DNA of 64,000 nucleotides from Candidatus Kaiserbacteria bacterium (GCA_016186695.1 JACPLC010000001.1:109718-173717); one strand, 5' to 3'; numbered from the stretch's first letter, positions 19,633 through 57,681 are shown. Program-made: numbers and translations. The notes: generated by a model not told the origin, from the sequence alone.

Positions 19633-19712
19633 GGAAGTCGCAGGGACGATTTATTGCCTGCGAAACTCGCTTCGCTCAAACAGTCCTCGTCAACAAATCG
19701 CACCTGCGACTT
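19633..19712 (+). repeat. Structured intergenic repeat family, copy 1 (between the pilin gene and pilD)
   Basis: Core CCTGCGAAACTCGCTTCGCTCAAACAGTCCTCG flanked by a perfect 12-bp outer stem GGAAGTCGCAGG/CCTGCGACTTCC. Homologous to the copies at 37402, 40284, 48881, 51811 and 57595. Confidence 0.7.
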
Positions 19713-19723
19713 CCTCAGGCGGA

Positions 19724-19729
19724 TATAAT
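19724..19729 (+). promoter_or_regulatory. TATAAT -10 hexamer 6 nt upstream of the pilD ATG
   Basis: Sequence ggaTATAATgcaaagATG. Confidence 0.35.
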
Positions 19730-19735
19730 GCAAAG

Positions 19736-21028
19736 ATGGGTGAAGCAATTTTTTTTGGTCTCTTTGGTCTCATTGTAGGAAGCTTTCTCAACGTTCTTAT
19801 TCTCCGGTGGGGTAAACAGCGTGTCACAGGCCGAAGCGCATGCGTTTCTTGCGGTGGGCGAATTGCATGGTATGACCTTATCCCTGTTATTTCGTGGATC
19901 CTCTTGCGCGGCCGTTGTCGCGCGTGCGGCGCAAAGATATCCATCCAATACGTGCTCGTAGAAGCAGGTACCGCGATACTCTTCGTGCTCATCGGACTAT
20001 CTTCGCTTCCACTTCTCACCCGTCTCGCCGCGCTCCCGATCGCGGCTCTCCTTGTTGCGATCGCGGTATACGATCTTCGTCACACCCTCATACCAGATGC
20101 GTGGGTCCTGACAGTTGCTGGGTTAGCGCTTCTTAGTTCGTTACTATCACTCGCAGGTCAGGAAACCTTGTTCGACGTCATCCTGACGCTTTTTTTTGGT
20201 CCTGTGGGAGGATCCCTCGTCGCACTTCCTCTTTTTGGATTTTGGTTTTTCTCGCACGGCACGTGGATGGGATTCGGCGATGTGAAGCTCGCGCTTGCTA
20301 TGGGGTGGCTCTTAGGGATAGTCAGCGGACTAGAGGCGCTCTTTCTCGCCTTCGTCCTCGGAGCGGCCATCGGTATTCCGCTCCTCTTTTTTTCTTCACG
20401 CGCTTGGGAGCTCATGCGGGCGCGATTTACCCCCACAGGAGCTTCGCAGAAGTTTCGTGGGAGGTTTACAATGAAAAGCGAGGTACCGTTCGGTCCGTTT
20501 CTCGTCGCGGCGACACTCATCATATGGCTTTCAAACATGCACGGTCTCGTTGAGAATCTTGCCTATGATGTCGCTCTCTCCGTTAGGCAGGCACAGGTGT
20601 ACGGCATTGCGGTGAGGCGATACGGTGCTACTAATTTCAGCATCGGCTACGGGATGCATTTTGCTATCGACAGTCCCACCACGTACGTGCTATTTGCCGA
20701 CGCGTTATCCGCCAACGGTCTCTATGATGGCTGTCCCGACTCGATTTCGTGCGAGCTGGTCGAATCTACCGACATACTCCGCGGCTACCACATCGCCGAT
20801 CTGTGCGCGACTGCAGGTGGCGGGGGAGGTGAAGTGTGCGGAGTGCAGAAACTCGATATTCTCTTCAAGCGGCCAGAACCCGATGCCTATATAAGTGCGA
20901 ACGGTGTGTCGGGAGTTGCGAACCCCGGAGCACTTCAAGAGCGCGGGCGCATCGTACTCGAATCGCCACGTGCGGATCGCATAAGCGTAATCGTTGAGGT
21001 GGCAGGGCAGATCGCAACGCAACCATAG
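19736..21028 (+). CDS. pilD: Prepilin peptidase (A24 family, PilD) fused to a C-terminal extension of about 165 aa of unknown function
   Basis: N-terminal zinc-binding CxxC...CxxC. Multi-TM A24 peptidase core with the GFGDVKL catalytic Asp region. A24 peptidases are usually 250 to 290 aa, whereas this ORF is 430 aa. Confidence 0.8.
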   Translation: MGEAIFFGLFGLIVGSFLNVLILRWGKQRVTGRSACVSCGGRIAWYDLIPVISWILLRGRCRACGAKISIQYVLVEAGTAILFVLIGLSSLPLLTRLAALPIAALLVAIAVYDLRHTLIPDAWVLTVAGLALLSSLLSLAGQETLFDVILTLFFGPVGGSLVALPLFGFWFFSHGTWMGFGDVKLALAMGWLLGIVSGLEALFLAFVLGAAIGIPLLFFSSRAWELMRARFTPTGASQKFRGRFTMKSEVPFGPFLVAATLIIWLSNMHGLVENLAYDVALSVRQAQVYGIAVRRYGATNFSIGYGMHFAIDSPTTYVLFADALSANGLYDGCPDSISCELVESTDILRGYHIADLCATAGGGGGEVCGVQKLDILFKRPEPDAYISANGVSGVANPGALQERGRIVLESPRADRISVIVEVAGQIATQP

Positions 21029-21030
21029 GT

Positions 21031-21603
21031 ATGGGGGACCGCGGCTTCACACTCATCGAGATGATAGTAGCAGTCGGGCTCTTTGCGGTTGTGATGCTTG
21101 TTTCGACAGCGGCGCTTCTTTCTCTCGTGGGCGCGAACCGCAAAGCACATGCCCTGCAATCGGTCATGAACAACTTTAGTGTCGCACTCGACGGCATGGT
21201 GCGGTCAGTCCGTATGGGTTCCGAATACCATTGTGGGGCAGGTGACATAACCACGCCCCAGTCATGCGAAGACGGTGATACGAAGCTCGCTTTCAAACCG
21301 TTTTGCGAAGAAGACTGCGATTCCCTCGAGAGGTGGGTATACGCGTATGACACGAACGGCACATTCTGCGGACAAGGGCGTCTGTGCAAGTCCGAGAACA
21401 ACGGGAACAATTACTATGCGGTTACTGCGGGAGACGTCTCGATCGACGACCTGACATTTTACGTCATCGGTACAACGCGGGGCGACACGATACAGCCAAA
21501 GGTTGTTGTGGCCGTGAGCGGTACCGCGGGAGGTAGTGATGTAAAAACGAGTACTACATTTTCGATACAAGCTACCGCCGTGCAGAGGATCTTGGACATA
21601 TGA
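21031..21603 (+). CDS. Pseudopilin / minor pilin (prepilin N-terminal methylation motif)
   Basis: GFTLIEMIVAVGLFAVV N-terminus. Confidence 0.75.
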   Translation: MGDRGFTLIEMIVAVGLFAVVMLVSTAALLSLVGANRKAHALQSVMNNFSVALDGMVRSVRMGSEYHCGAGDITTPQSCEDGDTKLAFKPFCEEDCDSLERWVYAYDTNGTFCGQGRLCKSENNGNNYYAVTAGDVSIDDLTFYVIGTTRGDTIQPKVVVAVSGTAGGSDVKTSTTFSIQATAVQRILDI

Positions 21604-22157
21604 AGAAGGGATTTACACTTATTGAGACGCTTGTTGCAGTTACAATCCTTTCGGTTGCGATTACAGCCCCGATGGCCTTGACCGCCAAGAGCCTTGCGGC
21701 CGCGTACTATGCGCGGGATCAGATCACCGCGTATCATCTTGCGCAGGAGGCGATCGAAGCGATACGTCATGCGCGCGACAACAACATCCTCACCAATGTC
21801 TTCGGCACTCATGCGGATCTTTTGGAGGGTATTCCGTCGACGACAGGCTCACCATTCACCGTGGACACTCGGGACGATTCGACGGCTCTCTGCGCGCCCG
21901 ATGGCTGTCCGCCACTGCAATCGAACGGCGAGCTATACGGATACAGACCGGGGTGCTCGATGCCGACTCTTGATTGCGGCACCGCAGAGGGGTGGGAAAA
22001 CTCTCGATTCACCCGCACGGTACGCGCGGAGTTTGTGACAGGAAGTTCGGACGAAGTCCGCATCTCGGTCGAAGTCGAATGGAGAACCGGCTCGTTCCAG
22101 ACGCGTTCGTTCACGATTTCGGAGAATCTCTACCGCTGGGTAGAGGAGATAGAATAG
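21600..22157 (+). CDS. Pseudopilin / minor pilin
   Basis: GFTLIETLVAVTILSVAI N-terminus. 4-nt overlap with the previous gene. Confidence 0.75.
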   Translation: MKKGFTLIETLVAVTILSVAITAPMALTAKSLAAAYYARDQITAYHLAQEAIEAIRHARDNNILTNVFGTHADLLEGIPSTTGSPFTVDTRDDSTALCAPDGCPPLQSNGELYGYRPGCSMPTLDCGTAEGWENSRFTRTVRAEFVTGSSDEVRISVEVEWRTGSFQTRSFTISENLYRWVEEIE

Positions 22158-22166
22158 TATGAAAAT

Positions 22167-22628
22167 ATGAAAGGGAGAAAAAGGGAAAAAGGGTTTACAC
22201 TGATGCTTGCGGCGCTTATCGCTTCCGTGACGCTTGCGCTCGGCACGTCCATCTTTGCGCTTGCCCAAAAGGAGCTCTCACTCTCATCGGTTGGCCGTGA
22301 TTCGCAGTTTGCCTTCTACGCGGCCGACACTGGTGCCGAGTGTGCGCTCTATTGGGACATACGATTCCAGCTCTTTCCCACGACAACACCGACCTCGAAG
22401 AATCTCACCTGCGACAACGAGGCGAAAACCACATCAGCTTCAAACGTCGACGGTGATATTATCTCCTCGTTCGAGTTTGAACCCAACGGGTACTGCGCGA
22501 AGGTAAGTGTCACAAAACGTGATACGAACCCGAGGACGAAGATTCACGTGGACGGCTACAACACGACATGCGCGAACATCCAATCGAGCTCCCATGCGCT
22601 TGAGCGCTCCGTCGATCTTAAGTACTGA
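22167..22628 (+). CDS. Pseudopilin / minor pilin
   Basis: KGFTLMLAALIASVTLAL N-terminus. Confidence 0.7.
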   Translation: MKGRKREKGFTLMLAALIASVTLALGTSIFALAQKELSLSSVGRDSQFAFYAADTGAECALYWDIRFQLFPTTTPTSKNLTCDNEAKTTSASNVDGDIISSFEFEPNGYCAKVSVTKRDTNPRTKIHVDGYNTTCANIQSSSHALERSVDLKY

Positions 22629-22638
22629 AAACAGCTGA

Positions 22639-24977
<2,339 letters not shown>

Positions 24978-27515: not shown

Positions 27516-27589
27516 GTCGGGGTAGCTCAGCTGGTTAGAGCGGACGTTTCATAAGCGTCAGGTCGTGGGATCGTAGCCCACCCCCGACA
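27516..27589 (+). tRNA. tRNA-Met (anticodon CAT), elongator-like
   Basis: Cloverleaf with acceptor GTCGGGG/CCCCGAC, D-arm GCTC...GAGC, anticodon stem GACGT/GCGTC and loop TTCATAA. T-loop ATCGTAG carries an A54:U58 swap, a covariation of the usual T54:A58. Confidence 0.7.
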
Positions 27590-27680: not shown

Positions 27681-28442
27681 GTGGCTCCAATGTATCGTAA
27701 AGTAAGACGTGATTTTTTCCGCATCTGGTCCGCGGAAATGGCATACGTTCTTGGTTTCTTTGCAGCCGATGGCAATATGATCCGGAACAGGCGAGGCGCG
27801 TATTTCGTCAGCTTTTACTCGAATGACAGGCGGTTGCTCGTCGATATCCGACATGTACTCGACTCCTCACACAGGATTGGAACGAAGAAACATTTTCCTT
27901 CGCGTAGGACCGCATACCAACTTCAAATCGGGAGCAAAGAAATCTTTGAGGATTTGTTGTCATTGGGATTTACTCCAAATAAGAGTACATCACTTCGGCT
28001 GCCGCGTATTCCGAGGTCGCTCGCGAAGCATTTCGTGCGAGGCTACTTTGATGGAGACGGCAATGTGTATTTCAAAAGGCACTTCGCGAAGGATCGGGGT
28101 AAATACCGGTGGATATTTCAAAGCAGGTTTACATCGGGCAGTCGTGTGTTTCTGGAAGATCTCCATACCGTTCTTCGGAGCAACGGAATTCTTGGCGGAT
28201 CGCTCATCAAGAAAGAGCGCGGCCACGATTTGCTATTTAGTCATCATGATAGCGTTGCTTTATTCCGTCTTATGTACAATAATATCGGCGATTGCGTATA
28301 TCTTAGGAGAAAGTACTTGCTATTCCGACACGCAGTCGACTCATTGTATGGGGGCGTAGCTCAGCCCGGTTCAGAGCGTCCGCTTGTCACGCGGAAGGTC
28401 GCGGGTTCAAATCCCGTCGCTCCCGCATCACCGAAAAACTGA
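27681..28442 (+). CDS. Double-motif LAGLIDADG homing endonuclease, free-standing; functional protein probably ends near 28349
   Basis: Two LAGLIDADG motifs, LGFFAADGN and VRGYFDGDGNV, about 100 aa apart. Lower GC (about 47%) than the flanks. From 28350 the frame reads through tRNA-Asp, so the last 30 codons probably translate the tRNA. Confidence 0.75.
   Translation: MAPMYRKVRRDFFRIWSAEMAYVLGFFAADGNMIRNRRGAYFVSFYSNDRRLLVDIRHVLDSSHRIGTKKHFPSRRTAYQLQIGSKEIFEDLLSLGFTPNKSTSLRLPRIPRSLAKHFVRGYFDGDGNVYFKRHFAKDRGKYRWIFQSRFTSGSRVFLEDLHTVLRSNGILGGSLIKKERGHDLLFSHHDSVALFRLMYNNIGDCVYLRRKYLLFRHAVDSLYGGVAQPGSERPLVTRKVAGSNPVAPASPKN
28350..28425 (+). tRNA. tRNA-Asp (anticodon GTC)
   Basis: Acceptor GGGGGCG/CGCTCCC (one G:U pair). 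D-arm GCTC...GAGC. Anticodon stem TCCGC/GCGGA with loop TTGTCAC. T-arm GCGGG TTCAAAT CCCGT. Confidence 0.8.
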
Positions 28443-33394: not shown

Positions 33395-33548
33395 AACCCC
33401 GCTGCTTCGGGGTTATGCGCTCCGCTCGAAAGAGCGGTCTTCCTTCTTTTATCCCGACTGTACGGTCGGTCGCGGGATCTCACCGCAGTCGTGTCCCGAC
33501 TTTTGTCAGGACTCGTGGACTCGCCCCTCGAGAGGAGCTCTACCACCG
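33395..33548 (-). ncRNA. FMN riboswitch (RFN element) with intrinsic terminator, upstream of ribE
   Basis: Minus-strand sequence ...AGGGGCGAGTCCACGAGTCCTGACAAAAGTCGGGAC...GATCCCGCGACCGACCGTACAGTCGGGATAAAAGAAGGAAG matches conserved RFN blocks (for example CCGACAGTGAAAGTCTGGATGGGAGAAGGA). Followed by hairpins CCGCTCTTTCGAGCGG and CCCCGAAGCAGCGGGG plus a T-tract that abuts the ribE ATG. Confidence 0.8.
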
Positions 33549-33725
33549 ATTGGGACTTTCCGCCAATCTGGCGGATCACCCAAACCCCGAAGGAAATGTA
33601 AGTATACCGCTCGCTTCAACGAAAGCCAACCGTTATACTTTCGAAATGCAGAGCAAAGAAACGATAGCGGCTATGGTGCTTCTTTTTGCGATGTATAAGG
33701 TAGCTAAACTCAATCGCGAGAAAAG

Positions 33726-36464: not shown

Positions 36465-37385
36465 ATGAGTACATGGGTCAATGTGAAGCGGGTGGCGAGG
36501 TACGGGCTCATTGGTTTCGTGCGCAACGGATTTGTGTCACTCGCGGCGGTTCTTATTATGACTATCACGCTCTTTGTCGCTGCAGGCCTCCTTATTCTCG
36601 GAGCTGCACTTAGCTCAACGCTGCAGCAGCTCACCGAAAAAGTAGATGTGACCGTCTACTTCACAACGAATGCATCCGAGGAGCAGGTTCGAGAGGTGCG
36701 AGGCTCACTCGAGGCACTTTCCGAAGTTGCTGTTGTGACCTACATAAGCCGCGAAGAGGCGCTCGCCATCTTCCGCGAGCGTCACAAGAACGATCAGCTT
36801 ACACTGCAGGCACTCGACGAACTCGGTGAAAATCCTCTCGGCGCTTCGCTCGAGATCCGCGCGAAAGAGACGAGCCAATACGAATCGATCGCTCGTTCGC
36901 TCGAAGCCATGCAGGAAGGTGGCGAAAGTGGCATTGATAAGGTGAATTTCTTCCAGAACAAGACCGCCATCGATCGTCTTACCAATATTATTGAAACCTC
37001 GGGGCGGCTCGGCATCGCGATCTCGCTCGTTCTGGGGCTTGCGACGGTGCTTATCGCCTTCAATACAGTGAGGCTTGCCATCTACACGGCACGGGATGAG
37101 ATCGGCGTTATGAATCTCGTGGGTGCCTCGCGTTGGTACGTACGCGGACCTTTTATGATAACCGGCGTACTCTACGGGCTCATAAGTGGTCTCATTGTGC
37201 TTCTCCTCCTGTATCCTCTTACACTCTGGATAGGTCCCGGGAGCGAGCGCTTTTTCGGCTCGTTCAATGTGTTTTCCTACTTTATCAGCTCGTTCCCCCT
37301 CGTATTTCTTGTCGTGATGGGTTCTGGGATCGGGCTTGGCGCACTTTCCAGCTATCTCGCGGTTCGCCGATACTTGCATACATAA
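36465..37385 (+). CDS. ftsX: Cell division permease FtsX
   Basis: FtsX topology: N-terminal TM helix, large periplasmic loop, three C-terminal TM helices. Confidence 0.85.
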   Translation: MSTWVNVKRVARYGLIGFVRNGFVSLAAVLIMTITLFVAAGLLILGAALSSTLQQLTEKVDVTVYFTTNASEEQVREVRGSLEALSEVAVVTYISREEALAIFRERHKNDQLTLQALDELGENPLGASLEIRAKETSQYESIARSLEAMQEGGESGIDKVNFFQNKTAIDRLTNIIETSGRLGIAISLVLGLATVLIAFNTVRLAIYTARDEIGVMNLVGASRWYVRGPFMITGVLYGLISGLIVLLLLYPLTLWIGPGSERFFGSFNVFSYFISSFPLVFLVVMGSGIGLGALSSYLAVRRYLHT

Positions 37386-37401
37386 AGAGAGAGGGTCGCT
37401 C

Positions 37402-37476
37402 GGGCGGGAGCGTTTTCCGCCTGCGGGACTCGCTTCGCTTCGAACAAGGTCCTCGGCGAAAAAGCGCTCCTGCCCT
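37402..37476 (+). repeat. Structured intergenic repeat family, copy 2 (downstream of ftsX)
   Basis: GGGCGGGAGCGTTTTCCGCCTGCGGGACTCGCTTCGCTTCGAACAAGGTCCTCGGCGAAAAAGCGCTCCTGCCC. The outer arms are complementary. Confidence 0.7.
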
Positions 37477-37514
37477 CACTAGGCACTCTCACTGCCCGCT
37501 CGTGGATTGTGTGT

Positions 37515-37528: not shown

Positions 37529-39190
37529 ATGAAGCGGCGTGCGCAGAGCGGGCATAAGTATATTTTTGTTGTCGGTGGGGTGATGTCCGGCGTCGGCAAA
37601 GGGATTGCGACGGCCTCGATCGGAAAACTACTCACCGCACGCGGAGTATCGGTGAATCTCGTCAAGATTGATCCGTATCTCAATGTGGATGCGGGTACCA
37701 TGAACCCAATAGAGCATGGGGAGGTTTTTGTTTTGGATTCCGGATTGGAAACGGACCAGGACATGGGAAACTACGAGCGATTTCTCGAGCGCGATCTTGG
37801 CGGAGACGACTACATGACGAGCGGTATGGTGTATGGCTCGGTAATTGCCCGCGAGCGTAATCTTGGCTATGGAGGAAAATGTGTCGAGACGATCCCACAT
37901 GTGCGCGATGAAGTGATCGAGCGTCTGCGGCGCGCCGCAGACGTATCGAACTCCGACATTTCGGTGGTGGAGATCGGCGGCACGGTCGGCGATTTTCAGA
38001 ACGCACTCTACATGGACGCGGCGCGTGTGATACACCTGCTTTCTCCCCACGACGTGCTCTTTGTCATGGTTTCATATTTGCCCGTACCTGGAACATTGGG
38101 AGAAATGAAAACGAAGCCGACACAAAACGCGGTGCGTCTTCTCAACTCCTATGGCGTACAACCCGACATCATCATCGCGCGCGCCGCGCATCCGCTCGAT
38201 CGGAAGCGCAAGGAAAAGCTCGCCATCAGCTGCAACGTGCATCCCGCCATGATCGTCTCCGCACCCGACGTTGAAAGTATTTACGATGTCCCAGTCAACT
38301 TCGAGCGCGACAAGCTCTCCGATATTCTGCTCGAGTCGCTCGGGTATGAAGAGAAGCCAGAGGCCGATCTCTCTGTGTGGAAAGAATTTGCCGACAAGGC
38401 GCGAAACGGCGGGAAGCGGGTAAAGATTGGCATTGTCGGCAAGTATTTTGATACGGGAGACTTCGTGCTCTCGGACGCGTACATCTCGGTCATCGAATCA
38501 ATAAAATTCTCCGCGTACGCCCATGACGCGAAACCAGAGATCCACTGGCTGAACGCAAAAACTTACGAAGCGAATCCGAAAGCTGTCGCCGAGCTCGAAG
38601 ACTATGATGGAATCTTAGTACCGGGGGGTTTCGGTGAGACAGGTATTGAAGGGAAGATCGCAGCAATCAAATTCGCGAGGGAGAACAAGATCCCGTATTT
38701 CGGTCTTTGCTATGGCATGCAGCTTATGACGGTCGAATACGCGAGGAATGTTGGAGGCCTTAAGAACGCGCATACCACCGAAATAAATCCCGAAACACCA
38801 CATCCCATTATCATGATATTGCCTGAACAGGTCGAGAAGTTGGCGAAGAAAGACTACGGCGGTTCGATGCGTCTCGGGGCATACCCATGCGATCTTGTCG
38901 AAGGGACGATTGCGCGCAAGGCCTATGGCAAAGAATCTATTTCAGAGCGTCACCGTCACCGCTACGAAGTAAATCCGGAATACATCGAGCGTCTCTCGAA
39001 AGCAGGCCTTGTTTTCTCCGGAATATCACCTGATCGCCGCCTGATGGAGATCGCCGAGCTTCCAAAAAAGGAACATCCCTTCATGCTCGGAACGCAGTTC
39101 CATCCCGAAATGAAAGCGCGCCCGCTTTCGCCGCATCCTTTGTTCAGTGCCTTCATCAAAGCAGCCATTGAGCGAAAGAAGAAGGCATAG
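37529..39190 (+). CDS. pyrG: CTP synthase
   Basis: N-terminal synthase domain (YIFVVGGVMSGVGKGI). C-terminal glutamine amidotransferase with GLCYGMQ catalytic Cys. Confidence 0.9.
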   Translation: MKRRAQSGHKYIFVVGGVMSGVGKGIATASIGKLLTARGVSVNLVKIDPYLNVDAGTMNPIEHGEVFVLDSGLETDQDMGNYERFLERDLGGDDYMTSGMVYGSVIARERNLGYGGKCVETIPHVRDEVIERLRRAADVSNSDISVVEIGGTVGDFQNALYMDAARVIHLLSPHDVLFVMVSYLPVPGTLGEMKTKPTQNAVRLLNSYGVQPDIIIARAAHPLDRKRKEKLAISCNVHPAMIVSAPDVESIYDVPVNFERDKLSDILLESLGYEEKPEADLSVWKEFADKARNGGKRVKIGIVGKYFDTGDFVLSDAYISVIESIKFSAYAHDAKPEIHWLNAKTYEANPKAVAELEDYDGILVPGGFGETGIEGKIAAIKFARENKIPYFGLCYGMQLMTVEYARNVGGLKNAHTTEINPETPHPIIMILPEQVEKLAKKDYGGSMRLGAYPCDLVEGTIARKAYGKESISERHRHRYEVNPEYIERLSKAGLVFSGISPDRRLMEIAELPKKEHPFMLGTQFHPEMKARPLSPHPLFSAFIKAAIERKKKA

Positions 39191-40282: not shown

Positions 40283-40283
40283 C

Positions 40284-40373
40284 GCGAGGACGGAGATCGT
40301 TTTCCGCCTGCGGGACTCCCCGCCGGCTGGCGGGTCGAACAGGTCCTCGGCGAAAAAGCGCTCCCGTCCTCGC
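40284..40373 (+). repeat. Structured intergenic repeat family, copy 3 (downstream of guaB-like)
   Basis: Outer stem GCGAGGACGGAG.../...CTCCCGTCCTCGC. Core TTTTCCGCCTGCGGGACTC and GAACAGGTCCTCGGCGAAAAAGCGCTCC. The internal hairpin is replaced by CCCGCCGGCTGGCGGG. Confidence 0.7.
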
Positions 40374-47593: not shown

Positions 47594-48880
47594 ATGGACG
47601 CTATACGGGCATTTGGCGAGCAGACTTTTTCGTCGTTGAAGATCCGCAATTATCGTCTCTACTTTATCGGGCAAGGGCTCTCCGACATCGGCACGTGGAT
47701 GCAGGTGGTTGCAATCGGCTGGCTTGTGCTTGAGCTGACCGGCTCCGGAATACAGCTCGGAAGCGTATTGGCATTCCGTTTTGCGCCCATGCTTGCCTTG
47801 GGTGTGCTTGCCGGAAGTGTCGTCGATTCGTTCGACAAGCGGGTCCTTTTGTACATAACGCAATCTATCGGGGCATTCGTCGCGCTCTCTATAGGCGTCC
47901 TTGTTCTTACGGAATCTATCACGCTCCCGATGGTATACCTCGCCGCGCTCGTTCTCGGCCTTGCGGATGTTTTCGATCGTCCAGCGAGGCAGACGTTTGT
48001 GCACGAGGTAGTAGGTCCCGAGAATCTGAGAAATGCCGTTAGCTTAGGCTCTGCGCGCGCGAATCTCGCGCGCGCCCTCGGGCCTATGTTTGCGGGTGCC
48101 CTGATTGCAGGCGCAGGCATGGCACTCTGTTTTTTTGGGAACGCGCTTTCATATGCTGTGTCCCTCGTTGCACTTTTTTTGATGCGCCGGCGCGAATTGC
48201 ATCGCGAATTCGCCGAAGCGCGCAAAGTGAGCCATATTTTTTCGGGTCTTCGCTATGTTGCATCAATGCCGCTCATACGCACTATTCTCATTTCTATGGC
48301 GGTCGTCGGCACCCTCTCGTATGAATTTCAAACTACACTTCCTCTCCTTGCACGTACAACGTTTCTCGGAAATGCCGCCGACTATGCGGCACTCCTTTCT
48401 GCAATGGGAGCGGGTAGCGTTGCCGGAGGTTTGTTCTCTGCGAGCCGCAAGGAAGTTGGCGCGCACGAGTTTGTTTTCTGGGCGTTTCTCTTCGGCGTTT
48501 CGATCTGCGCGACAGCGTTCATGCCCTCTCTCCCGTACGCAGTTCTCGGGATGGTATTTGTGGGATTCTTTTCCATCTGTCTTTCCACTACGGGAAACAC
48601 CATGATCCAACTCGAATCTGCCTCGCACATGCGGGGGCGGGTGATGTCTTTGTGGTCGATGGCACTTTTCGGCTCAACCTTGATCGGCGCGCCCATCGTC
48701 GGGCTTGTCGGCGAGCATATTTCTCCGCGATGGGCGCTCGCGCTTGGCGGAGTAGCGGCGATTGTTGCGGCACTTTTTGCGAGCCGTCGGCTTCTCAAGA
48801 GCTATCAGTTCTTTTCTATTCCATCATTTATATCCATTCGCCGAGAGGAGGAGACAGTTGTAGAGAGTGAGAAAGTATGA
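47594..48880 (+). CDS. MFS transporter (EntS/MFS_3-like)
   Basis: Twelve predicted TM helices. MFS-type loop motifs. 428 aa. Confidence 0.8.
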   Translation: MDAIRAFGEQTFSSLKIRNYRLYFIGQGLSDIGTWMQVVAIGWLVLELTGSGIQLGSVLAFRFAPMLALGVLAGSVVDSFDKRVLLYITQSIGAFVALSIGVLVLTESITLPMVYLAALVLGLADVFDRPARQTFVHEVVGPENLRNAVSLGSARANLARALGPMFAGALIAGAGMALCFFGNALSYAVSLVALFLMRRRELHREFAEARKVSHIFSGLRYVASMPLIRTILISMAVVGTLSYEFQTTLPLLARTTFLGNAADYAALLSAMGAGSVAGGLFSASRKEVGAHEFVFWAFLFGVSICATAFMPSLPYAVLGMVFVGFFSICLSTTGNTMIQLESASHMRGRVMSLWSMALFGSTLIGAPIVGLVGEHISPRWALALGGVAAIVAALFASRRLLKSYQFFSIPSFISIRREEETVVESEKV

Positions 48881-48996
48881 ACGCAGAAGCGGAAGCGTTT
48901 CTCGCCTGCGAAACTCGCTTCGCCCGTCACACGCACCGCGTGTGGTCGGGCTTCGCTCAAACAGTCCTCGGCTTCAAAACGCTTCCACTCCTGCGC
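48881..48996 (+). repeat. Structured intergenic repeat family, copy 4 (long variant, downstream of the MFS gene)
   Basis: Outer stem GCAGAAGCGGAAGCGTTT/AAACGCTTCCACTCCTGCGC. Core GCCTGCGAAACTCGCTTCGC plus an extra internal hairpin CACACGCACCGCGTGTG, then TTCGCTCAAACAGTCCTCGGC. Confidence 0.7.
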
Positions 48997-49051
48997 TTGT
49001 GGGAATAAATAATGAAACCGCCCCTTTTGGGGCGGTTTCTTCGAGAATGCG

Positions 49052-50726: not shown

Positions 50727-51804
50727 GTATCGGTTCGATCCGTTCTTCCGTACAGAAGTAAGTGTCGTCGCACTGCAGATCGTGTTTGCAGTTCTACTTC
50801 TCCTCATAGTCGGTCTTGCGGCAACCTCGCTCTACCATGATGCTTCTGCCGCACTTTCGCGCGGTATAGAGCAGGTACTAACGTCGCCATCCAACCCCGA
50901 GGCAGTGGGCCACTCTGTCGCGGAGGAACTCTCGACGATGCGGATGAGGACCGTTACGTGGGCGGCGATTGCCGTCGTGGCCGTAACTGTCTTTCTAAGC
51001 TATCTCATTGCACGTGTCGCGCTTAGCCCTACACGAAACGCGCTTGAATCCCAAAAACAATTCATTGGGAACGTCGCGCATGAGCTTCGCACGCCGCTTT
51101 CGGTCATCAAGACCAACACCGAAGTCGCCCTCATGTCGGGAGGGATTGAGCGAGAACTTCGTTCGACCTTGGAGAGCACGGTCGGAGAACTCGATCGCAT
51201 ATCTGAGATTATCAACAATCTACTCTCGCTCTCCGCTTCTGTACGGCCTGAGCGCATGGAATTTAAAGATCTTGATTTCGGTCCCATCGTGCATGGCGTC
51301 ATCGGGAAGTTGAAAGAGCTCGCTGATTCAAAGCGTGTCGAGATAACGGCACGAATGAGTCAGCGCAGGTTCGTACTCGGCAACCCCGCAGCCCTTGAGC
51401 AGATTACGATGAATATACTCAAGAACGCTATCACGTACTCACCTCGTGGCGGGCGGGTCATCGTCACGGTAGAACCGATACACCCGGATTATATAGAGTT
51501 TACCGTGCAGGATTTTGGCATCGGCATCGCGCAGAAGAACCTGTTCCGGATCTTTGAGCCATATTATCGAGTAGATCCTTCGCGCTATCGCGGCGAGTCG
51601 GGTTCGGGTCTAGGATTAACGATTGTCTCCGAACTCGTCAAGCTCCATAACGGCAAGATCACTGTGCGAAGTGCCGAGCAGCGTGGCACCATTGTGACCG
51701 TTCATCTTCCCGCCGGTCGGCCGAGTCTCACATCGGAGCGAGCTGCAGCTCACGATGAGCACGCGGGCGAAGTAACCGTCGATTTTTCGCATCGCGCGGG
51801 CTGA
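50719..51804 (+). CDS. Sensor histidine kinase (two TM helices, HisKA, HATPase_c); start uncertain (GTG at 50719 or further upstream)
   Basis: H-box NVAHELRTPL. N, G1 and G2 boxes (GSGLGL). Overlaps the response-regulator stop. Confidence 0.8.
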   Translation: MHKYRFDPFFRTEVSVVALQIVFAVLLLLIVGLAATSLYHDASAALSRGIEQVLTSPSNPEAVGHSVAEELSTMRMRTVTWAAIAVVAVTVFLSYLIARVALSPTRNALESQKQFIGNVAHELRTPLSVIKTNTEVALMSGGIERELRSTLESTVGELDRISEIINNLLSLSASVRPERMEFKDLDFGPIVHGVIGKLKELADSKRVEITARMSQRRFVLGNPAALEQITMNILKNAITYSPRGGRVIVTVEPIHPDYIEFTVQDFGIGIAQKNLFRIFEPYYRVDPSRYRGESGSGLGLTIVSELVKLHNGKITVRSAEQRGTIVTVHLPAGRPSLTSERAAAHDEHAGEVTVDFSHRAG

Positions 51805-51810
51805 TGTGGT

Positions 51811-51917
51811 GAAGCGCAGCAGTTTTGCGGCCTGCGGAACTCGCTTCGCCCGTCACACGCACCGCGTGTGGTCGGGCTTCGCTCAGACAGTCCTCGGCAG
51901 CAAAACTGCTGCGCTTC
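51811..51917 (+). repeat. Structured intergenic repeat family, copy 5 (long variant, downstream of the histidine kinase)
   Basis: Outer stem GCGCAGCAGTTTTGC/GCAAAACTGCTGCGC is complementary but differs in sequence from the copy-4 stem. Core is near-identical to copy 4, including the CACACGCACCGCGTGTG hairpin. Confidence 0.7.
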
Positions 51918-52340
51918 AGCTGCGGCGACGCGAACGAGTCCGCGACGCCTTCATTTCTGATTCATGGCTACTCGGTACCATGATACGCGGAACCTTTGCT
52001 CCTTCTCTTTTCGAGGCGCCGCCCCGAGTGTGGGGCGGTGGCTCTCGGGAAGGTTATCAATATCCATACCCCACCATGTCACAGAGAATGGGGAAACTGT
52101 CCTTCATTCTGACGCGGAAGATAATCGCGTCAGCCGGGGAGGCGAGAGCTCTAAGGAGCCTCGCCTCCCCGGCGTATGAGGGGAAAACCGTTGGTTTCGA
52201 GCTCCTCGGCTCGGAAATGCGCAAGTAGCTTACGCATTTCTCTCACTTTACGTCGCTCGTAAGAAACAAGCATACATTTCGTCTTAATGAAGCGGAGGGA
52301 TTTTATCCCTCCTTTAACTTAGTAATCTATCTATTGAAGT

Positions 52341-53033
52341 ATGAAAAAGCATCAAATTACGGCGCTTCTTCTCGGCGCAGTGCTGGTTCCAATGACTTTC
52401 GCGTTGGCATTGAACCTTGAAGCAGATGTCGACAGTTCTGTGAACGTAGATGTCGGGCTCGGTGCGACAAGCTCGAATACCGGAGCATCGGGAGACGCTA
52501 ACGCAGAGGCCGCAGCCTCGAGCGAAGTAGTCCTCGGTGTTCCCGGGAATGTTGAGGTCATCGTTGTCACGAGGGCGGATGTTGAGGGAAGCGGCGCGAT
52601 AAGCGCAAGCGCATCTCCCGCATCGGTTAGCTCTGAAACTGACCTCTCGGGATTCGTTGCGGCACAGATTGCCTCGGACGAAAATCTCTCAAAGGTTGAG
52701 TCTTCCAAAAGCCGTGTCTCGGTAACCTACCCCCAGAAGGCCAGACTCTTCGGCCTTATTCCGATTACGGTGGACGCGACGGCGACAATTCTTGCGGACG
52801 GTACCGTGGACGTGAAGTACCCGTGGTACGCTTTCCTCATGGTTACGAACGAAACGGTGCTCGAAAGCGAGATTGAGAGCCGGGTAACGTCTCTCAATCC
52901 AGCGGGTGTCCGTGCTGTGGCAGACGCAGAGCTTGAACTCACGGCAAACGCGCAGGCGGAGTTGATCGATGAAGTACGCGCCGTGATGGAGAGTCAGCTT
53001 GCTATCGATGCGAGTGGCACAGTTGAACTCTAA
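52341..53033 (+). CDS. Hypothetical secreted protein (signal peptide, Ala/Ser/Val-rich)
   Basis: N-terminal signal peptide. Low-complexity composition. No motif. Confidence 0.5.
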   Translation: MKKHQITALLLGAVLVPMTFALALNLEADVDSSVNVDVGLGATSSNTGASGDANAEAAASSEVVLGVPGNVEVIVVTRADVEGSGAISASASPASVSSETDLSGFVAAQIASDENLSKVESSKSRVSVTYPQKARLFGLIPITVDATATILADGTVDVKYPWYAFLMVTNETVLESEIESRVTSLNPAGVRAVADAELELTANAQAELIDEVRAVMESQLAIDASGTVEL

Positions 53034-53140
53034 GACTGTGAAAATCAAAACAACCAGAGACCAAAAGGCCCCTGCATCGGGGTCTTTTGGTATAGTAGCG
53101 GAACAGCCTACGTAAGAAATGAAGGGCGTCAGCGTCTTCT

Positions 53141-53662
53141 ATGAAGGACATCGAGAAAATATTTCAGCAGGCGTTTGAAAAGCATGCGGACGAACTCTTC
53201 CGACACGCCTCTTTGAGGCTCTCGGATCGCGATCGCGCGCTCGAACTCACGCAGGAATGTTTTCTACGCACTTTGGCTTATGCCTCGCGCGGCGAGGAGA
53301 TCCGCGAGATACGCCCGTTCCTCTTCAGAACATTGAGGCATCTCATCATCGATGAGTATCGCAGGGCAAAATCATTCTCGCTCGACGAGATGACAGAAGG
53401 CGAGGATGGGGAGCAGATGGACTCGCTTCTCAAGGATGAAACCGACGAGCTCGAGCAGGCGTTTGCGCGCTTCGACGGAGCACGTGCGCTCGGTATGATC
53501 AGGCGGCTGCCGGATCTGTACCGCGAAGTCTTGATGATGCGCTACGTTGATGACCTCTCGATATCTGAAATTGCCGCGTGCATCGAGGAGAGCGAAAATG
53601 TGGTCTCGGTGCGGCTGCATCGCGGTTTAAAGAAGTTGCGCGCCTTGCTTGAATCTGAATAA
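53141..53662 (+). CDS. ECF-subfamily RNA polymerase sigma-70 factor
   Basis: Sigma70 region 2 (FLRTLAY...LIIDEYRR) and region 4 (LSISEIAACIEESENVVSVRLHRGLKKLR). Confidence 0.85.
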   Translation: MKDIEKIFQQAFEKHADELFRHASLRLSDRDRALELTQECFLRTLAYASRGEEIREIRPFLFRTLRHLIIDEYRRAKSFSLDEMTEGEDGEQMDSLLKDETDELEQAFARFDGARALGMIRRLPDLYREVLMMRYVDDLSISEIAACIEESENVVSVRLHRGLKKLRALLESE

Positions 53663-53669
53663 TCAAAGT

Positions 53670-54794
53670 ATGAATAAATTTTTCTCACAATTGAAAAAAG
53701 AAGCGAATGAGATCCGGCTCTCACCGAGGGAGCGGGAGGTAATGCGTCGTGCGCTTTTAAAAGCGATTGGCAAGCCGAAACTCGTGAAAAGTCCGTTCCG
53801 CGTGACACAAAGTCCGTATCTTTTTATATCATCGAAGCTTGTCACGCCACTTGCGTTTGTTTTGGTTATTGCCGTCATTGGCGGCGGAACAGCCTACGCG
53901 GCTGAAGCAGCCGTGCCGGGCGACGCGCTCTATACAATCAAGGTGAATGTAAATGAGAAAGTAGCCGAGGCGTTTGCGGCGGGGGCGGAGGCGAGAGCGT
54001 CAGTGCATGCAAATCTCGCCGAGCGGCGCATGAAAGAAGCAGAAGTTTTGGTGGAGCGCGGAGCGCTTACGAGAGATGCGAAAGAAGAGATCGAGACGCG
54101 CTTAGATAGCCATGCAACCGAGCTCGATATCGCTATAGAGGTTGTCGGGAGAGACGATCCTGTCGCGGCAGCAGAGCTGTCGACCCGTCTTGGATCAGCG
54201 CTTGCCGCGCACAGCGCGCTCATCGAGCGGCTGGGGGAGGAGGCCGACGATGAGGGAAGCAGAGAGGAGTCGCGGCGTTTCGCTTCGGCGCTTCGGGAGC
54301 GCGGATCGAGGCTCGCTCGCGCGGAAGACGGAGTCGCCGTTATGGCGATGCGCACTGACGGCGATATCGCAGTGCAGACATTTGCCAAAAGCGGAGAGAG
54401 TTCGGTCTCTGCATCGGTGACGATGCGCGGCGAAGCTGGGAATTCCGTCGCGATACAGCTACGAAGAAATGCATCGAGCACGCTGGAAGAAGCGGAGATA
54501 AAACTGAATGCACTCAAGAATGTGAATGCTACCACTGCGGCACGGGTAAAAGCGCAGATCGGAAAGACACGCGATTCTTTAAAGAAGCTCCACAAGGACG
54601 ACAAAGAGGGATTTGAGAAAGCGCTCAAGGATGCGAAGACCCTGCAGGTATTTATCGAAGCGCAGGAGAAATTCCAAATGCGCGCGATTCTTCCGGCACC
54701 GGACATAGAAGAGAATGACGAAGAGGACAACTCCGGACATGGCTCCGACGATGATCGTGAAGATACATCGTTAACCGCTCCGCTTCCATTTTAA
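53670..54794 (+). CDS. Putative membrane-anchored anti-sigma factor (DUF5667-like), cotranscribed with the ECF sigma
   Basis: Single TM helix at about residues 55 to 78. Helical, charged periplasmic region. Genomic context. Confidence 0.55.
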   Translation: MNKFFSQLKKEANEIRLSPREREVMRRALLKAIGKPKLVKSPFRVTQSPYLFISSKLVTPLAFVLVIAVIGGGTAYAAEAAVPGDALYTIKVNVNEKVAEAFAAGAEARASVHANLAERRMKEAEVLVERGALTRDAKEEIETRLDSHATELDIAIEVVGRDDPVAAAELSTRLGSALAAHSALIERLGEEADDEGSREESRRFASALRERGSRLARAEDGVAVMAMRTDGDIAVQTFAKSGESSVSASVTMRGEAGNSVAIQLRRNASSTLEEAEIKLNALKNVNATTAARVKAQIGKTRDSLKKLHKDDKEGFEKALKDAKTLQVFIEAQEKFQMRAILPAPDIEENDEEDNSGHGSDDDREDTSLTAPLPF

Positions 54795-54848
54795 TGTGCA
54801 TGACTAAATCGTTTTGACTCTCGCGCACTCTCGCGCGAGAATTGCGCG

Positions 54849-55736
54849 ATGCACGGACTAACGGAGCAGCAGAAAGGCGAATGGTACACATTCGGGGGCG
54901 CACTTTTCTGGGCAGTCTTTCCCGTCATGGTCGTGCTTTCATACGCGACACTTCAAAGCCTCGTCTCACTCCTCTGGAGTACTGGACTCGCCGCACTCTT
55001 TTTTGCCGCAGTGATGACGTATCGGAAGCGATGGGGAGAGATCCAAAATCCTCGTTTGTGGAAAAATGTTCTTATGGTCACGCTGTTTATCGGCGTGCTG
55101 TTTTATAGCCTCTACTACATCGGGCTCGAAACGACGAGCCCTGGGAACGTTGCCATCATCACGCTCTTTGAGGTTTTCACGTCTTTCGTGTTTTTCCGGC
55201 TATTCAGGGGAGAACGGCTTTCGTTCGACTACGCCTTGGGCGCGATCTTTATGGTCATCGGCGCTGCTATCGTGCTTGCGCCGAATTTTGCCGGCGTTCG
55301 CGTCGGTGATTTCATCGTGCTTGCGGCAACATTTTTTGCGCCGGCGGGTAATTACTTCCAACAGCGGGCGCGCGAGATCGCTTCTGCCGAGAGTATCATG
55401 TTTTTGCGCAGTACTCTTTCGCTGTTTCCGATTTTTGCCCTCGTGTATTTTTTCGGACAAAAATCTTCCTCCGCAGACATCGTTTCGGCTTCACTTTTTC
55501 TTATCGTGAACGGGATTCTCCTGCTCGGTCTCTCCAAACTTTTCTGGATTGAGGCAATTCATCGCATATCCGTCACGAAAGCGACGGCGCTTTCGAGTAT
55601 TGCACCTTTCTTTACGCTCCTTGTTGCATGGGTTGCTCTCTCCCAAGAGCCCACGCTCCCACAGCTCCTTTCACTCATCCCATTTGTGCTCGGGACGCTG
55701 CTTCTGACGGACCAAATTCGGCTGATGAGAGCATAA
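54849..55736 (+). CDS. DMT-superfamily (EamA-like) transporter
   Basis: Ten TM helices arranged as two EamA repeats. Confidence 0.75.
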   Translation: MHGLTEQQKGEWYTFGGALFWAVFPVMVVLSYATLQSLVSLLWSTGLAALFFAAVMTYRKRWGEIQNPRLWKNVLMVTLFIGVLFYSLYYIGLETTSPGNVAIITLFEVFTSFVFFRLFRGERLSFDYALGAIFMVIGAAIVLAPNFAGVRVGDFIVLAATFFAPAGNYFQQRAREIASAESIMFLRSTLSLFPIFALVYFFGQKSSSADIVSASLFLIVNGILLLGLSKLFWIEAIHRISVTKATALSSIAPFFTLLVAWVALSQEPTLPQLLSLIPFVLGTLLLTDQIRLMRA

Positions 55737-55849
55737 ATGCGCGACCAATACCATTTTGCGTTCGGAGTTGACAAGATAACGCGCTAGAGGCATAGTTGCG
55801 GCATTAGAAGGGGGAGGGGGATAATTATCTATATTTTAAGCCATATATT

Positions 55850-57592
55850 ATGAAAACCGTTGCTCTAAGTGCTGCTCTTGGCGTTCTACTTCTCGCAAGC
55901 GTAGCTTCGGCACAGGTGTACTACCCACAGACATACACTCCTCCTACCTATACAACCTCCGTTTCGGGTTCCGCGTGCGTCATGCTCTCCTCTGACCTTT
56001 CATTCGGTTCCCGCGGCACCGAAGTGACGAAGCTCCAGCAATTTCTCGTGACCCAGAACTATCCCGGTGGCGGCAACTGGATGGTTACCGGCTATTTCGG
56101 ACAGGCTACCGCGCAGGCAGTACGCAATTTCCAGCAGTCGGCAGGAATCCCGATGACAGGCTACGTTGATGCGGCGACACGCTCTGCGATCCAGAGCCGC
56201 ACGTGCGCAGGATTCGCGGGCGTTGTTCCCGTCCCTCCGGTTGTTTCTCCGACGTATACGCTCCCGACGCCGACGTACACGACTCCTCCGTATACTCCAA
56301 CATACACAACTCCTCCGTATACCTCGCCGAATTATCCGTATCCGTCACTCTATCCGTACGGCGGCGTATCGATAACCTCGCTCTCGACGCAGAGCGCGCA
56401 GATCGGAACCTCGGTAACCATGTATGGAAGTGGTTTCGACGTCACGGGCACAAACACGGTGCACGTGGGCAACGCTACCGTCGTCGCGGCGAGCAACGGC
56501 TCGTCTATCACCTTTGCTGTCCCATCGACTCCGGCGGGCACCTACAGCGTGTATATAACGAACTCGCGTGGCACCTCAAACTCGATCTCGTTTTCTGTCA
56601 CGCAAGTGCAATCGGTCTGCAACCAGACGCCGTGGTACCAGCCGTGGAACTGGTTCGGCCAGCAATACCAGTGCGGCATCTACAGCAGTGTTCTGCTCAA
56701 TTCTGTTACCCCGAACTGGGCAGCAGTGGGAACTACTATCACGGTAAAGGGTAACGGATTTTCTGCGACAGGGAACACGGTATACATGGGTGGAAGTGTT
56801 GTCGCAACCGTTTCTTCGACGAACAACGGGACAGAGCTCACCTTTGCTGTGCCGACGCAGCTGCAGGGTCCGTATGGTTTGCAACAGATAGTGCCGGGCC
56901 ACTATCCGGTGCGTGTCGTGAATGCAACGGGCGCGCAAAGCAACTCGCTCACGCTCTCCATCACACAGCAAGGATCGAGTTCACTTTCGATCTCGAGTAC
57001 TTCGGGACCGAGCTCACTTCAAGCTGGTGCGCAGGGAATATGGACACTTGTGGTGAACGTACCCTATGGCTCGTACCTTACGACGACCGTGAACTGGGGT
57101 GATAGCAGCACTCCTTTCACCTCGAGCGCAGCGCCGACCTTCCTCTCCGGCATACAGACGCTCACCTTCACTCACGTGTATCCGAATGTCGGCACGTATA
57201 CGATCACCTTCACGGTGACGAGTGGCAACAACACGACTTCGGCAACGAAGACGGTGACAGTCACTTCGGCTCCGAGTGGCGGCTCCCTGAACCTCAACTT
57301 CTTGAGCCCAATACAGGGCGCTGTCGGGACGACGGTCACGCTGAATGGTTCGGGCTTCACTTCGACGGAGAATGTCGTGCACTTCGGCATCGGCGGCTCG
57401 CGCAACGTCTCTTCGACGAATAGTGGCACGCAGATCGCGTATGTTGTCCCGACAAATATCTCGGCATGTGATCTCATCGCACCCGGTTTCTACTGCGGTG
57501 CCCCGGTTCAGACCGTGACGCCGGGCGTCTATCCTCTGTACGTGACGAACTCAACAGGGGCGACGAACGTTCTCTATTTCACGGTACAATAA
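55850..57592 (+). CDS. Cell-surface protein with signal peptide, PG-binding domain, Pro/Thr/Tyr-rich linker and three IPT/TIG-like beta-sandwich repeats
   Basis: PG_binding_1-like LQQFLV...GYFGQATAQAVRNFQ. Linker PTYTTPPYTPTYTTPPYTSPNYPYP. Three repeats of the form ITS/VTP...GT.VT..GSGF....NTV..G...V...S...T.L.F.VP. Confidence 0.7.
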   Translation: MKTVALSAALGVLLLASVASAQVYYPQTYTPPTYTTSVSGSACVMLSSDLSFGSRGTEVTKLQQFLVTQNYPGGGNWMVTGYFGQATAQAVRNFQQSAGIPMTGYVDAATRSAIQSRTCAGFAGVVPVPPVVSPTYTLPTPTYTTPPYTPTYTTPPYTSPNYPYPSLYPYGGVSITSLSTQSAQIGTSVTMYGSGFDVTGTNTVHVGNATVVAASNGSSITFAVPSTPAGTYSVYITNSRGTSNSISFSVTQVQSVCNQTPWYQPWNWFGQQYQCGIYSSVLLNSVTPNWAAVGTTITVKGNGFSATGNTVYMGGSVVATVSSTNNGTELTFAVPTQLQGPYGLQQIVPGHYPVRVVNATGAQSNSLTLSITQQGSSSLSISSTSGPSSLQAGAQGIWTLVVNVPYGSYLTTTVNWGDSSTPFTSSAAPTFLSGIQTLTFTHVYPNVGTYTITFTVTSGNNTTSATKTVTVTSAPSGGSLNLNFLSPIQGAVGTTVTLNGSGFTSTENVVHFGIGGSRNVSSTNSGTQIAYVVPTNISACDLIAPGFYCGAPVQTVTPGVYPLYVTNSTGATNVLYFTVQ

Positions 57593-57594
57593 GA

Positions 57595-57681
57595 GAGGCG
57601 CTCGGGCGGAAGCGTTTTCCGCCTGCGGGACTCGCTTCGCTCGAACAGGTCCTCGGCGAAAAACGCTTCCGCCCTCGCTTC
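57595..57681 (+). repeat. Structured intergenic repeat family, copy 6 (downstream of the surface-protein gene)
   Basis: GAGGCGCTCGGGCGGAAGCGTTTTCCGCCTGCGGGACTCGCTTCGCTCGAACAGGTCCTCGGCGAAAAACGCTTCCGCCCTCGCTTC. The arms are complementary. Confidence 0.7.

Follow-up and report, generated by a model that had tools for sequence, protein, structure and literature searches.

The stretch analysed here, referred to as the window, comprises 64,000 nucleotides of a Candidatus Kaiserbacteria bacterium (GCA_016186695.1, JACPLC010000001.1:109718-173717). It has a G+C content of 54%, a positive GC skew throughout and about three quarters of its open reading frames (ORFs) on the plus strand. Its genes include a type IV pilus cluster, ligA, gatA, a riboflavin operon with an FMN riboswitch, ftsEX, pyrG and others. 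The 3' ends of six genes carry copies (c1 to c6) of a family of hairpin-forming repeats, which is the subject of this report. In order, the element consists of an arm (17-25 bp, sequence free), a T-run, the asymmetric core (about 36 nt), an A-run and the complementary arm.

Six hairpin elements at gene 3' ends

The core motif GCCTGCGRRACTC occurs six times in the window, always on the plus strand (at 19656, 37419, 40306, 48904, 51830 and 57621), against an expected count of 0.54, and none of 100 shuffles reached six. A covariance model (R1), run on both strands with filters off, returned the same six sites at 43-87 bits and otherwise only generic hairpins with E > 0.01. Motif count and covariance model thus agreed on exactly six plus-strand copies, as had been claimed in an earlier note on this DNA that described a six-copy structured repeat in one orientation. 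Five of the six sites matched the 20-mer GCCTGCGGRACTCGCTTCGC with no more than one mismatch, and the top five inverted repeats by length in the window are five of the six copies. All six fold as long hairpins (-36 to -72 kcal/mol, z -3.6 to -6.2), and the reverse strand folds about equally well. The copies are 3-18 kb apart, and their hairpins start 0-16 nt after a stop codon. The identity of the six upstream genes given in the earlier note was confirmed by a Pfam scan: pilin (N_methyl), FtsX, an IMPDH-like protein, an MFS protein, a histidine kinase and a PG_binding/TIG/PKD surface protein.

Copy c1 (19633-19714, plus strand like all the others, 80.8 bits) begins 2 nt after the pilin gene stop at 19630, and the next gene starts at 19736; its arms (19633-19656 and 19691-19714) enclose the 36-nt core at 19656-19691, GCCTGCGAAACTCGCTTCGCTCAAACAGTCCTCGTC. 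Copy c2 (37395-37482, 65.9 bits) lies between the ftsX stop at 37385 and the pyrG start at 37529, with arms at 37402-37418 and 37458-37476 and the core at 37419-37457. Directly 3' of the IMPDH-like gene stop (40282) stands c3 (40283-40373, 43 bits; arms 40284-40308 and 40349-40373), in whose core (40306-40351) the central mini-hairpin is swapped for CCCGCCGGCTGGCGGG. Copy c4 (48882-48995, 50.1 bits; arms 48882-48900 and 48977-48995, core 48904-48972) is located between the MFS gene stop at 48880 and a terminator at 49014-49039, and carries an inserted inner hairpin, CCGTCACACGCACCGCGTGTGGTCGG, with CTTCG duplicated on either side. The same inner hairpin is present in c5 (51805-51922, 65.4 bits; arms 51810-51832 and 51896-51918, core 51830-51898), directly 3' of the histidine kinase stop at 51804. 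Copy c6 (57595-57681, 87 bits; arms 57604-57623 and 57655-57674, core 57621-57657) follows the surface-protein gene stop at 57592 and is itself followed by a terminator at 57688-57707. Copies c2 and c6 have their arms in common, plus some sequence outside the arms, which indicates that the arms belong to the copied unit.

The core is composed of GCCTGCGRRACTC, a mini-hairpin (GCTTCGC) or a longer hairpin, and then TCRAACAG(G)TCCTCGGC; its 3' half is also given as TCRAACAGTCCTCGGC. Across lineages, the most constant stretch within the core is AACTCGCTTCGCTCARACAG, and the element common to all versions is CTGCGRAACTY-P3-CTCARACAG, where P3 is mostly GCTTCGC and otherwise another small or large hairpin. 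The family is defined by this core, most of all by CTGCGRAACTCGCTTCGCTCARACAG. The 3' consensus quoted in the earlier note varies in length among the copies, and the arms of c2 are imperfect, with a bulge plus mismatches. The modular make-up described there was real, both in the inner hairpin of c4 and c5 (CCCGTCACACGCACCGCGTGTGGTCGGG) and in the substituted hairpin of c3. The inner hairpin lies at 48924-48950 and 51850-51876, between the duplicated CTTCG, and a long inner hairpin between duplicated CTCGC was seen at loci L044 and L052; by their sequence, these hairpins look like secondary insertions into the loop. The segment GCCCGTCACAC inside the c4/c5 inner hairpin is presumably equal to a universal 16S rRNA segment. 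ACTCGCT/TCGCTCA forms a perfect mirror repeat, and the minus strand of this repeat, UGA-GCGAAGC-GAG, would be a GNA-type mini-hairpin with tandem G.A flanks, which may be significant.

The arms differ from copy to copy and are still complementary to each other. In a model-guided alignment of the six window copies, 14 of 20 outer-stem pairs had double-sided changes, 89.3% of the cells were paired versus 72.9% in shuffles, and the covariation score was 0.49 versus 0.17 (0/500 shuffles as high; slid controls about 0.1); this alignment was fitted to the covariance model, for which two of the six copies were seeds. When 50 distinct copies were aligned to R1, 91.3% of the cells paired versus 59.9% in shuffles, all 20 outer pairs had double changes, and covariation reached 0.588 versus 0.123 (0/500 shuffles; slid controls about 0.1). 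An energy-free permutation test yielded a median own-arm complementarity of 12.5, whereas arms taken from other copies yielded a median of 5 and a 95th percentile of 9, which was exceeded by 28 of 32 copies. The likeness among 5' arms of unrelated copies was no higher than chance (median score 5 of 30). The earlier claims that the arms are self-complementary and copy-specific, and that the stems covary, were therefore upheld, the latter in the alignments of 6 and of 50 copies alike.

The mismatches did not favour the further claim of selection on RNA structure. Pairing was nearly all Watson-Crick, with about 24 G-U cells (about 2.4% of the paired cells) versus 94 other mismatches in the 50 copies, and the share of wobbles among mismatches was no more than random single hits would yield. 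A model-free arm alignment gave 8 G:T versus 19 A:C mismatches on the plus strand, where many pyrimidine-pyrimidine oppositions also occur that are purine-purine on the minus strand. This pattern gives no support for selection on plus-strand RNA and, if anything, would weakly favour the minus strand or DNA. RNA-level selection is also countered by the occurrence of the family in either orientation outside the window, and by the presence of both orientations, with the core kept, at one site in recJ (see below).

The terminator 3' of c4 (49014-49039) is a canonical GC-rich stem-loop, called on the minus strand, that reads as bidirectional; it is orthologous to the terminator that stands directly after the MFS gene in the relative L043. 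The terminator 3' of c6 (57688-57707, plus strand) is also canonical and consists of GCCCCGCCAAAAGGCGGGGC and then a T-rich tail. Since the orthologous terminator stands downstream, c4 lies within a 3' untranslated region (UTR) and is not itself the terminator, and since c4 and c6 are upstream of terminators, both are transcribed. Copies c1, c2, c3 and c5 are between co-directional genes. The window copies lie in transcribed 3' ends, between a stop codon and a terminator or the next gene. No U/T tract was seen after any of the six, and none of them fits the definition of an intrinsic terminator as a GC-rich hairpin with an immediate U tract. The terminator role proposed in the earlier note was not supported, given this lack of a U tract and the canonical terminators that c4 and c6 have downstream, and nothing pointed to the small-RNA family that it also considered.

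The region of about 420 nt 3' of c5 (51919-52340) contains no Pfam-supported gene, and most of it is covered by an ORF at 51806-52228. That this ORF is spurious, as proposed earlier, is plausible: its start lies within c5 and it has no Pfam match. Strong hairpins are present at about 52013-52045 and 52133-52173 (a perfect 14-bp stem), with a terminator-like site at 52294-52312, and either a small RNA or a small ORF might lie here. Elsewhere in the window, the riboflavin operon on the minus strand (lumazine-binding ribE-like, ribBA, ribD) has the FMN riboswitch (33437-33598, minus strand, 72.3 bits) upstream. An ORF at 27681-28442 (plus strand) with a LAGLIDADG_3 homing-endonuclease domain is located between tRNAs at 27516-27589 and 28350-28425 and overlaps the second, and an intergenic inverted repeat at 3916-3957 (GCAGCGGGCCTGAATT / AATTCAGGCCCGCTGC; perfect over 16 bp, 10-nt loop) is unrelated to the family.

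The core in other genomes

An exact scan for GCCTGCGRRACTCGCTTCGC, covering one genome per species, found 101 loci, with about 4 expected by chance and 6 that look like chance; at the remaining loci, the core lies between arms that are self-complementary yet mutually unrelated. The core was found in Patescibacteria (Saccharibacteria, Kaiserbacteria, Paceibacterota, Nomurabacteria and others), on the gammaproteobacterial side in Halopseudomonas, Pseudomonas neustonica, Cellvibrionaceae, Oleiphilaceae, Marinobacter and Thiotrichaceae, and in one Campylobacterales and one Lachnospiraceae metagenome-assembled genome (MAG). Copy number ranged from 1 to dozens per genome, with dozens in each Parabacteroides genome. 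Ralstonia megaplasmids have several copies each, in which AAACTCGCTTCGCTCAGACAG is the apical loop on a stem of about 30 bp, and two adjacent copies in Ralstonia GMI1000 differ by compensatory changes. The loop was also present on six viral contigs. E. coli genomes had no copy, the 19-mers matched in a type I methylase gene being due to chance, and phage records gave chance partial matches only. The taxonomy of MAG contigs is as deposited; the isolates (Parabacteroides, Pseudomonas neustonica and Ralstonia GMI1000) secure the occurrence in Bacteroidota, Gammaproteobacteria and Betaproteobacteria.

In Proteobacteria and Parabacteroides, the element is a larger composite, and both arms bear additional CTGCGNNACTCG-like motifs. 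The proteobacterial composites (L045, L074, L039, L090, L026, L059, L088; Ralstonia L102, L103) measure 130-150 nt and contain three direct CTGCGNNACTCG-like copies plus one more small hairpin on the 5' side, with an A-rich 5' flank, AAAGAAAGG; read from the other strand, this flank is a T tract after the big hairpin and resembles a minus-strand terminator. The Parabacteroides units of about 170 nt (e.g., L002, L013, L034) have a 28-nt exact match to c1 and c4 (GCCTGCGAAACTCGCTTCGCTCAAACAG), a loop closed by CGCAGGC and added nested CTACTCCGG / CCCTCCGC modules. In the complete Parabacteroides genome NZ_CP187555, the listed copies are mostly on the minus strand at 0.27-1.95 Mb and mostly on the plus strand at 2.2-4.9 Mb.

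A scan against Rfam 15 at gathering thresholds yielded only tRNAs and the FMN riboswitch in the window and no family for the copies in 14 loci from four phyla; by E-value, c6 gave chance microRNA-hairpin matches only. A literature search by core strings found nothing relevant, and the element is not described in studies of a repetitive extragenic palindromic (REP) super-family (PMC3733652), of MITEs (miniature inverted-repeat transposable elements; PMC11602168) or of the tandem interspaced guide RNA (TIGR)-Tas systems (PMC12045711). The family was therefore not found in Rfam or the searchable literature; it may have been described before. An all-against-all comparison of ORFs from element-bearing loci revealed no recurrent protein family linked to the copies; the candidates pgk (beside recJ) and VirD4-like ATPases were dismissed as housekeeping coincidences.

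At L095 (Paceibacterota, 3654-3738) and L097 (Nomurabacteria, 5789-5873), the element lies in frame inside recJ, with the core translated as PAELASLKQSS. Further recJ inserts are located at L190 (2076-2160), L191 (2100-2184), L193 (744-828) and L194 (1592-1674), so that in-frame insertion into a conserved protein gene was seen for recJ at these six loci, the six window copies being intergenic. The insert occupies the linker between the DHH and DHHA1 domains and adds about 27 aa. Among the best 120 RecJ homologues, 87 could be parsed, 70 with a linker of 23-26 aa and 17 with one of 44-52 aa that includes the insert. Some inserts are forward and some slightly decayed (SAELAxLKQSSTAK), and two read AAEDCLSEVSSAGKK and AVEDCLSVASSADKK, corresponding to the reverse-complement frame of the core (reversed peptide AEDCLSEVSSAG). 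In the DNA, L193 and L194 are forward, L190 and L191 reversed, and L192 empty.

Folded alone, the core-bearing recJ forms of L095, L097, L190, L191 and L193 reached -42 to -59 kcal/mol. The core was 86-94% identical between recJ lineages, versus 68-81% for 300 nt of flanking recJ coding DNA, whereas the arms were about half identical and still complementary. Because the two orientations encode unrelated peptides, protein-level selection cannot explain the conservation of the core. Orientation relative to the recJ transcript is not conserved; the core is. Either the centre was flipped in place via inter-arm recombination or the site was hit twice, and the same site plus similar arms lean towards a flip. 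Arm polarity was considered as proof of a flip confined to the core and rejected, since inversion of the whole palindrome leaves the arms unchanged too. At the same site, L195 (1001-2710; recJ, protein P0006) carries a different palindromic insert that has kept CCTGCG...CCTCGG, with the universal loop swapped for CCCGCATGCGGG; the insert represents a sister family or else a form that has decayed.

Closer to the window, two relatives were compared. The window is syntenic with the Candidatus Kaiserbacteria MAG L043 at 68-77% nucleotide identity. The metagenome contig L104 is collinear over ftsX-pyrG-IMPDH and the next gene at 83-86% nucleotide identity, and its pyrG product is 95% identical to that of the window. 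Copies c2 and c3 are absent from L104 in full, arms included. In L043, the stop of the MFS orthologue is followed by 19 nt and the same terminator (AAACCGCCC...GGGCGGTTTC), with no element where the window has c4, so that c4 represents an insertion into a 3' UTR. Upstream of the MFS gene, L043 has a copy of its own at a site that in the window is only an 8-nt spacer. Presence and absence thus vary at orthologous sites (c2 and c3 in L104, c4 and the extra copy in L043), and, judged from these alignments, the copies are insertions relative to near relatives. The earlier description of a REP/MITE-like repeat gained support from its modular, multi-copy and structured nature and from these empty sites in syntenic relatives. 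Across 80 pyrG loci (563 kb) of related Parcubacteria, neither pattern search nor covariance model found a copy.

At the c2 site, L104 (1138-1216) has an unrelated perfect 18-bp hairpin (CCTGACATGCAATGAGGC...GCCTCATTGCATGTCAGG) right after ftsX, and long post-gene hairpins may turn over in these genomes. The idea that the core of c2 was dropped into a pre-existing terminator loop was rejected, as the arms of the L104 hairpin are unrelated and the c2/c6 arms travel with the element.

Gene arrangement around the copies was counted from crude ORF calls. Outside Parabacteroides, the intergenic copies comprised 10 with both neighbours in the same direction as the element (4 from the window), 8 between convergent genes, 6 with both neighbours opposed and none between divergent genes; the respective counts in Parabacteroides were 11, 12, 8 and 6. 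Set against local GC skew, the copies divided 29:31 in Parabacteroides and 21:11 among the rest; neither split was significant, and a tie of orientation to replication in other genomes was dropped on this ground. Gene 3' ends are preferred by the family, without a fixed orientation. The co-orientation of all six copies in the window is either lineage-specific or due to chance (two-sided p ~0.03).

Possible nature of the family

The reading that we put forward, with roughly an even chance of being right, is a dispersed, non-autonomous palindromic DNA repeat of the REP, Rickettsia palindromic element (RPE) or MITE class, whose centre is recognised by a putative factor and which stabilises mRNA 3' ends, if at all, only incidentally. 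The core would be recognised by a factor acting in trans, which would copy the element or maintain it, and the arms would need only to pair, on single-stranded or cruciform DNA. Their complementarity would be kept by selection for the hairpin, by arm-to-arm correction (template switching or inter-arm recombination), or by both. As a by-product, mRNAs would acquire 3' hairpins of high stability; like REPs, these may shield the 3' end or exert polarity. The family appears to have multiplied in this Kaiserbacteria-like lineage of the candidate phyla radiation (CPR) after the split from its nearest sampled relatives.

Several observations weigh against this reading. The Pfam scan of about 56 ORFs in the window, which is 64 kb of the genome, found no transposase, RAYT, IS110 or Nop gene, and no mobility gene recurred near the copies elsewhere. 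Target-site duplications, which the earlier note had proposed as a check on mobility, were not found in any consistent form at the six copies or in the filled/empty comparisons, where diverged intergenic sequence could hide short ones, and no conserved terminal repeat was found. The window copies are diverged except for c2/c6 and hence give no sign of ongoing transposition. The long conservation of the core in place within recJ is explained by a functional nucleic-acid site no less well than by a purely selfish element. The single orientation of the window copies coincides with transcription and with the leading strand alike, which are inseparable here, so that the copies may have an orientation-dependent role in this genome. 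The search pattern behind most of the outside copies has 20 core bases fixed, and this makes the core look more conserved than it is; the covariance-model hits and the recJ copies are less biased and partially correct this ascertainment.

A broader possibility, which we hold only tentatively, is that the core of about 36 nt is the recognition module of an unrecognised, very widespread system acting on DNA or RNA hairpins, in which the stems only have to pair and the centre is under nucleotide-level purifying selection across phyla, even in recJ and in either orientation. Such a system may be a new mobile palindromic element or a genome-maintenance site. A cis-acting structured RNA of the 3' UTR (a stabiliser, attenuator, terminator or source of 3'-derived small RNA), with stems formed by RNA folding and a loop bound by an RNA-binding factor, would account for the co-orientation of the six copies with the upstream gene 0-16 nt past its stop, for the transcription of c4 and c6 ahead of their terminators, for the strong covariation and very stable folds, and for the avoidance of divergent promoter regions (0/29 intergenic cases outside Parabacteroides). 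We consider it unlikely, however, given that G-U pairs are not enriched (about 2.4%), that wobble-type mismatches number 8 on the plus strand versus 19 on the minus strand, and that U tracts are missing and the terminators separate. Orientation is also mixed elsewhere (same-same 4 vs. opp-opp 6 outside the window; 11 vs. 8 in Parabacteroides), the recJ element is translated and occurs in both orientations with its core conserved, and no Rfam family matched.

REP and bacterial interspersed mosaic elements (BIMEs), which bind gyrase and IHF, and the cross-phylum protein sites parS and CIRCE are models for a host-function DNA site, in which a DNA-binding protein with broad conservation would occupy the centre of a hairpin or cruciform and serve chromosome organisation or replication. 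The nucleotide conservation of the core across phyla, and in both orientations within a coding gene above that of the flanking coding DNA, is consistent with such a site, as are the nearly all Watson-Crick stems and the lack of a linked mobility gene. The distribution is patchy, however, with no copy in 563 kb of Parcubacteria, at the c2 and c3 sites of L104, the closest relative, or in E. coli, which implies that the site is dispensable; genomes have anywhere between 1 and dozens of copies, we know of no protein that is a candidate for binding, and a host site seems quite improbable to us. Solitary guide-RNA-like units akin to TIGR stem-loop arrays or box C/D-like RNAs are highly improbable. 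The minus strand of the core, CUGA-GCGAAGC-GA, would have a k-turn-like tandem G.A topology around the GCGAAGC mini-hairpin, the core measures about 36 nt, TIGR systems are found in CPR bacteria, and TIGR stem-loop units have variable palindromic stems and a loop with short conserved motifs (PMC12045711). Against this, the units here are dispersed and not tandem, the loop is invariant and lacks variable spacers, no Nop/Tas gene was present among the window ORFs scanned or recurred near copies elsewhere, and the element is abundant in Parabacteroides and Ralstonia, without a known TIGR link. Hammerhead, group II intron domain V, boxA and sso CS-6 gave no convincing match to the core that we know of.

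To our knowledge, known palindromic repeats (REP, RPE, Correia) are lineage-specific and have conserved stems. Free stems around a near-identical centre in Patescibacteria, Proteobacteria, Bacteroidota and Firmicutes imply either a shared trans-acting partner or very effective horizontal spread, and we know of neither such a partner nor such spread. The orthologous filled and empty sites, and the in-frame recJ insertion that survived deep divergence in both orientations, are natural experiments by which RNA-level selection can be separated from DNA-level palindrome maintenance. The elements also create spurious ORFs and inflate proteins in CPR annotations, and the family would be a useful new model for libraries of repeats and non-coding RNAs.

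Comparison with known palindromic elements

The family resembles the REP/BIME and REPIN elements of E. coli and Pseudomonas, which are mobilised by RAYT/TnpA_REP, an IS200-like Y1 transposase whose gene usually has REPs on its flanks, in that both are multi-copy intergenic palindromic hairpins, mostly at gene 3' ends and within mRNAs, and REP-related super-families occur in several phyla (PMC3733652). REPs, however, measure 20-40 bp and carry a GTAG or CGTC tag, their stems being conserved and their loops short and variable, whereas here the centre is conserved and the stems are free, the same sequence of about 20-36 nt spans phyla, and the stems of the six copies differ, with no conserved tag at the arm ends. 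The RPEs of Rickettsia are likewise palindromes of about 100 nt without a known transposase, found between genes and in frame within them, as in recJ here. They are limited to Rickettsia and relatives and conserved over their whole length, unlike the present elements, which are conserved in the centre only and across phyla. We know of no similarity to Rickettsia RPE families.

With MITEs (Correia/NEMIS, ERIC), the elements share small size, non-autonomy, hairpin formation, insertion polymorphism and co-transcription with genes. Neither the conserved terminal inverted repeats of MITEs, which match those of a parent IS, nor their target-site duplications were seen here, and it is in the terminal arms that the copies vary most. 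Integron attC sites are also hairpins co-oriented at gene 3' ends, recognised by structure and built on variable complementary stems; they have conserved outer R''/R' boxes, extrahelical bases and a variable centre, and the arrangement here is reversed. The R'' (RYYYAAC) and R' (GTTRRRY) boxes are absent from the arm ends, the centre is invariant, and the flanking genes are core housekeeping genes rather than cassettes.

TIGR arrays likewise have variable palindromic stems around a structured loop and occur in CPR and phage genomes (PMC12045711). Their units are tandem, with variable spacers, beside a tas gene that encodes a Nop domain, whereas the present copies are solitary, 3-18 kb apart in the window, with an invariant loop, no tas gene found and no Nop-domain hit among the window ORFs. 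Palindromic interspersed repeats are well known as a general class; what sets this family apart is an almost invariant, cross-phylum core with free stems.

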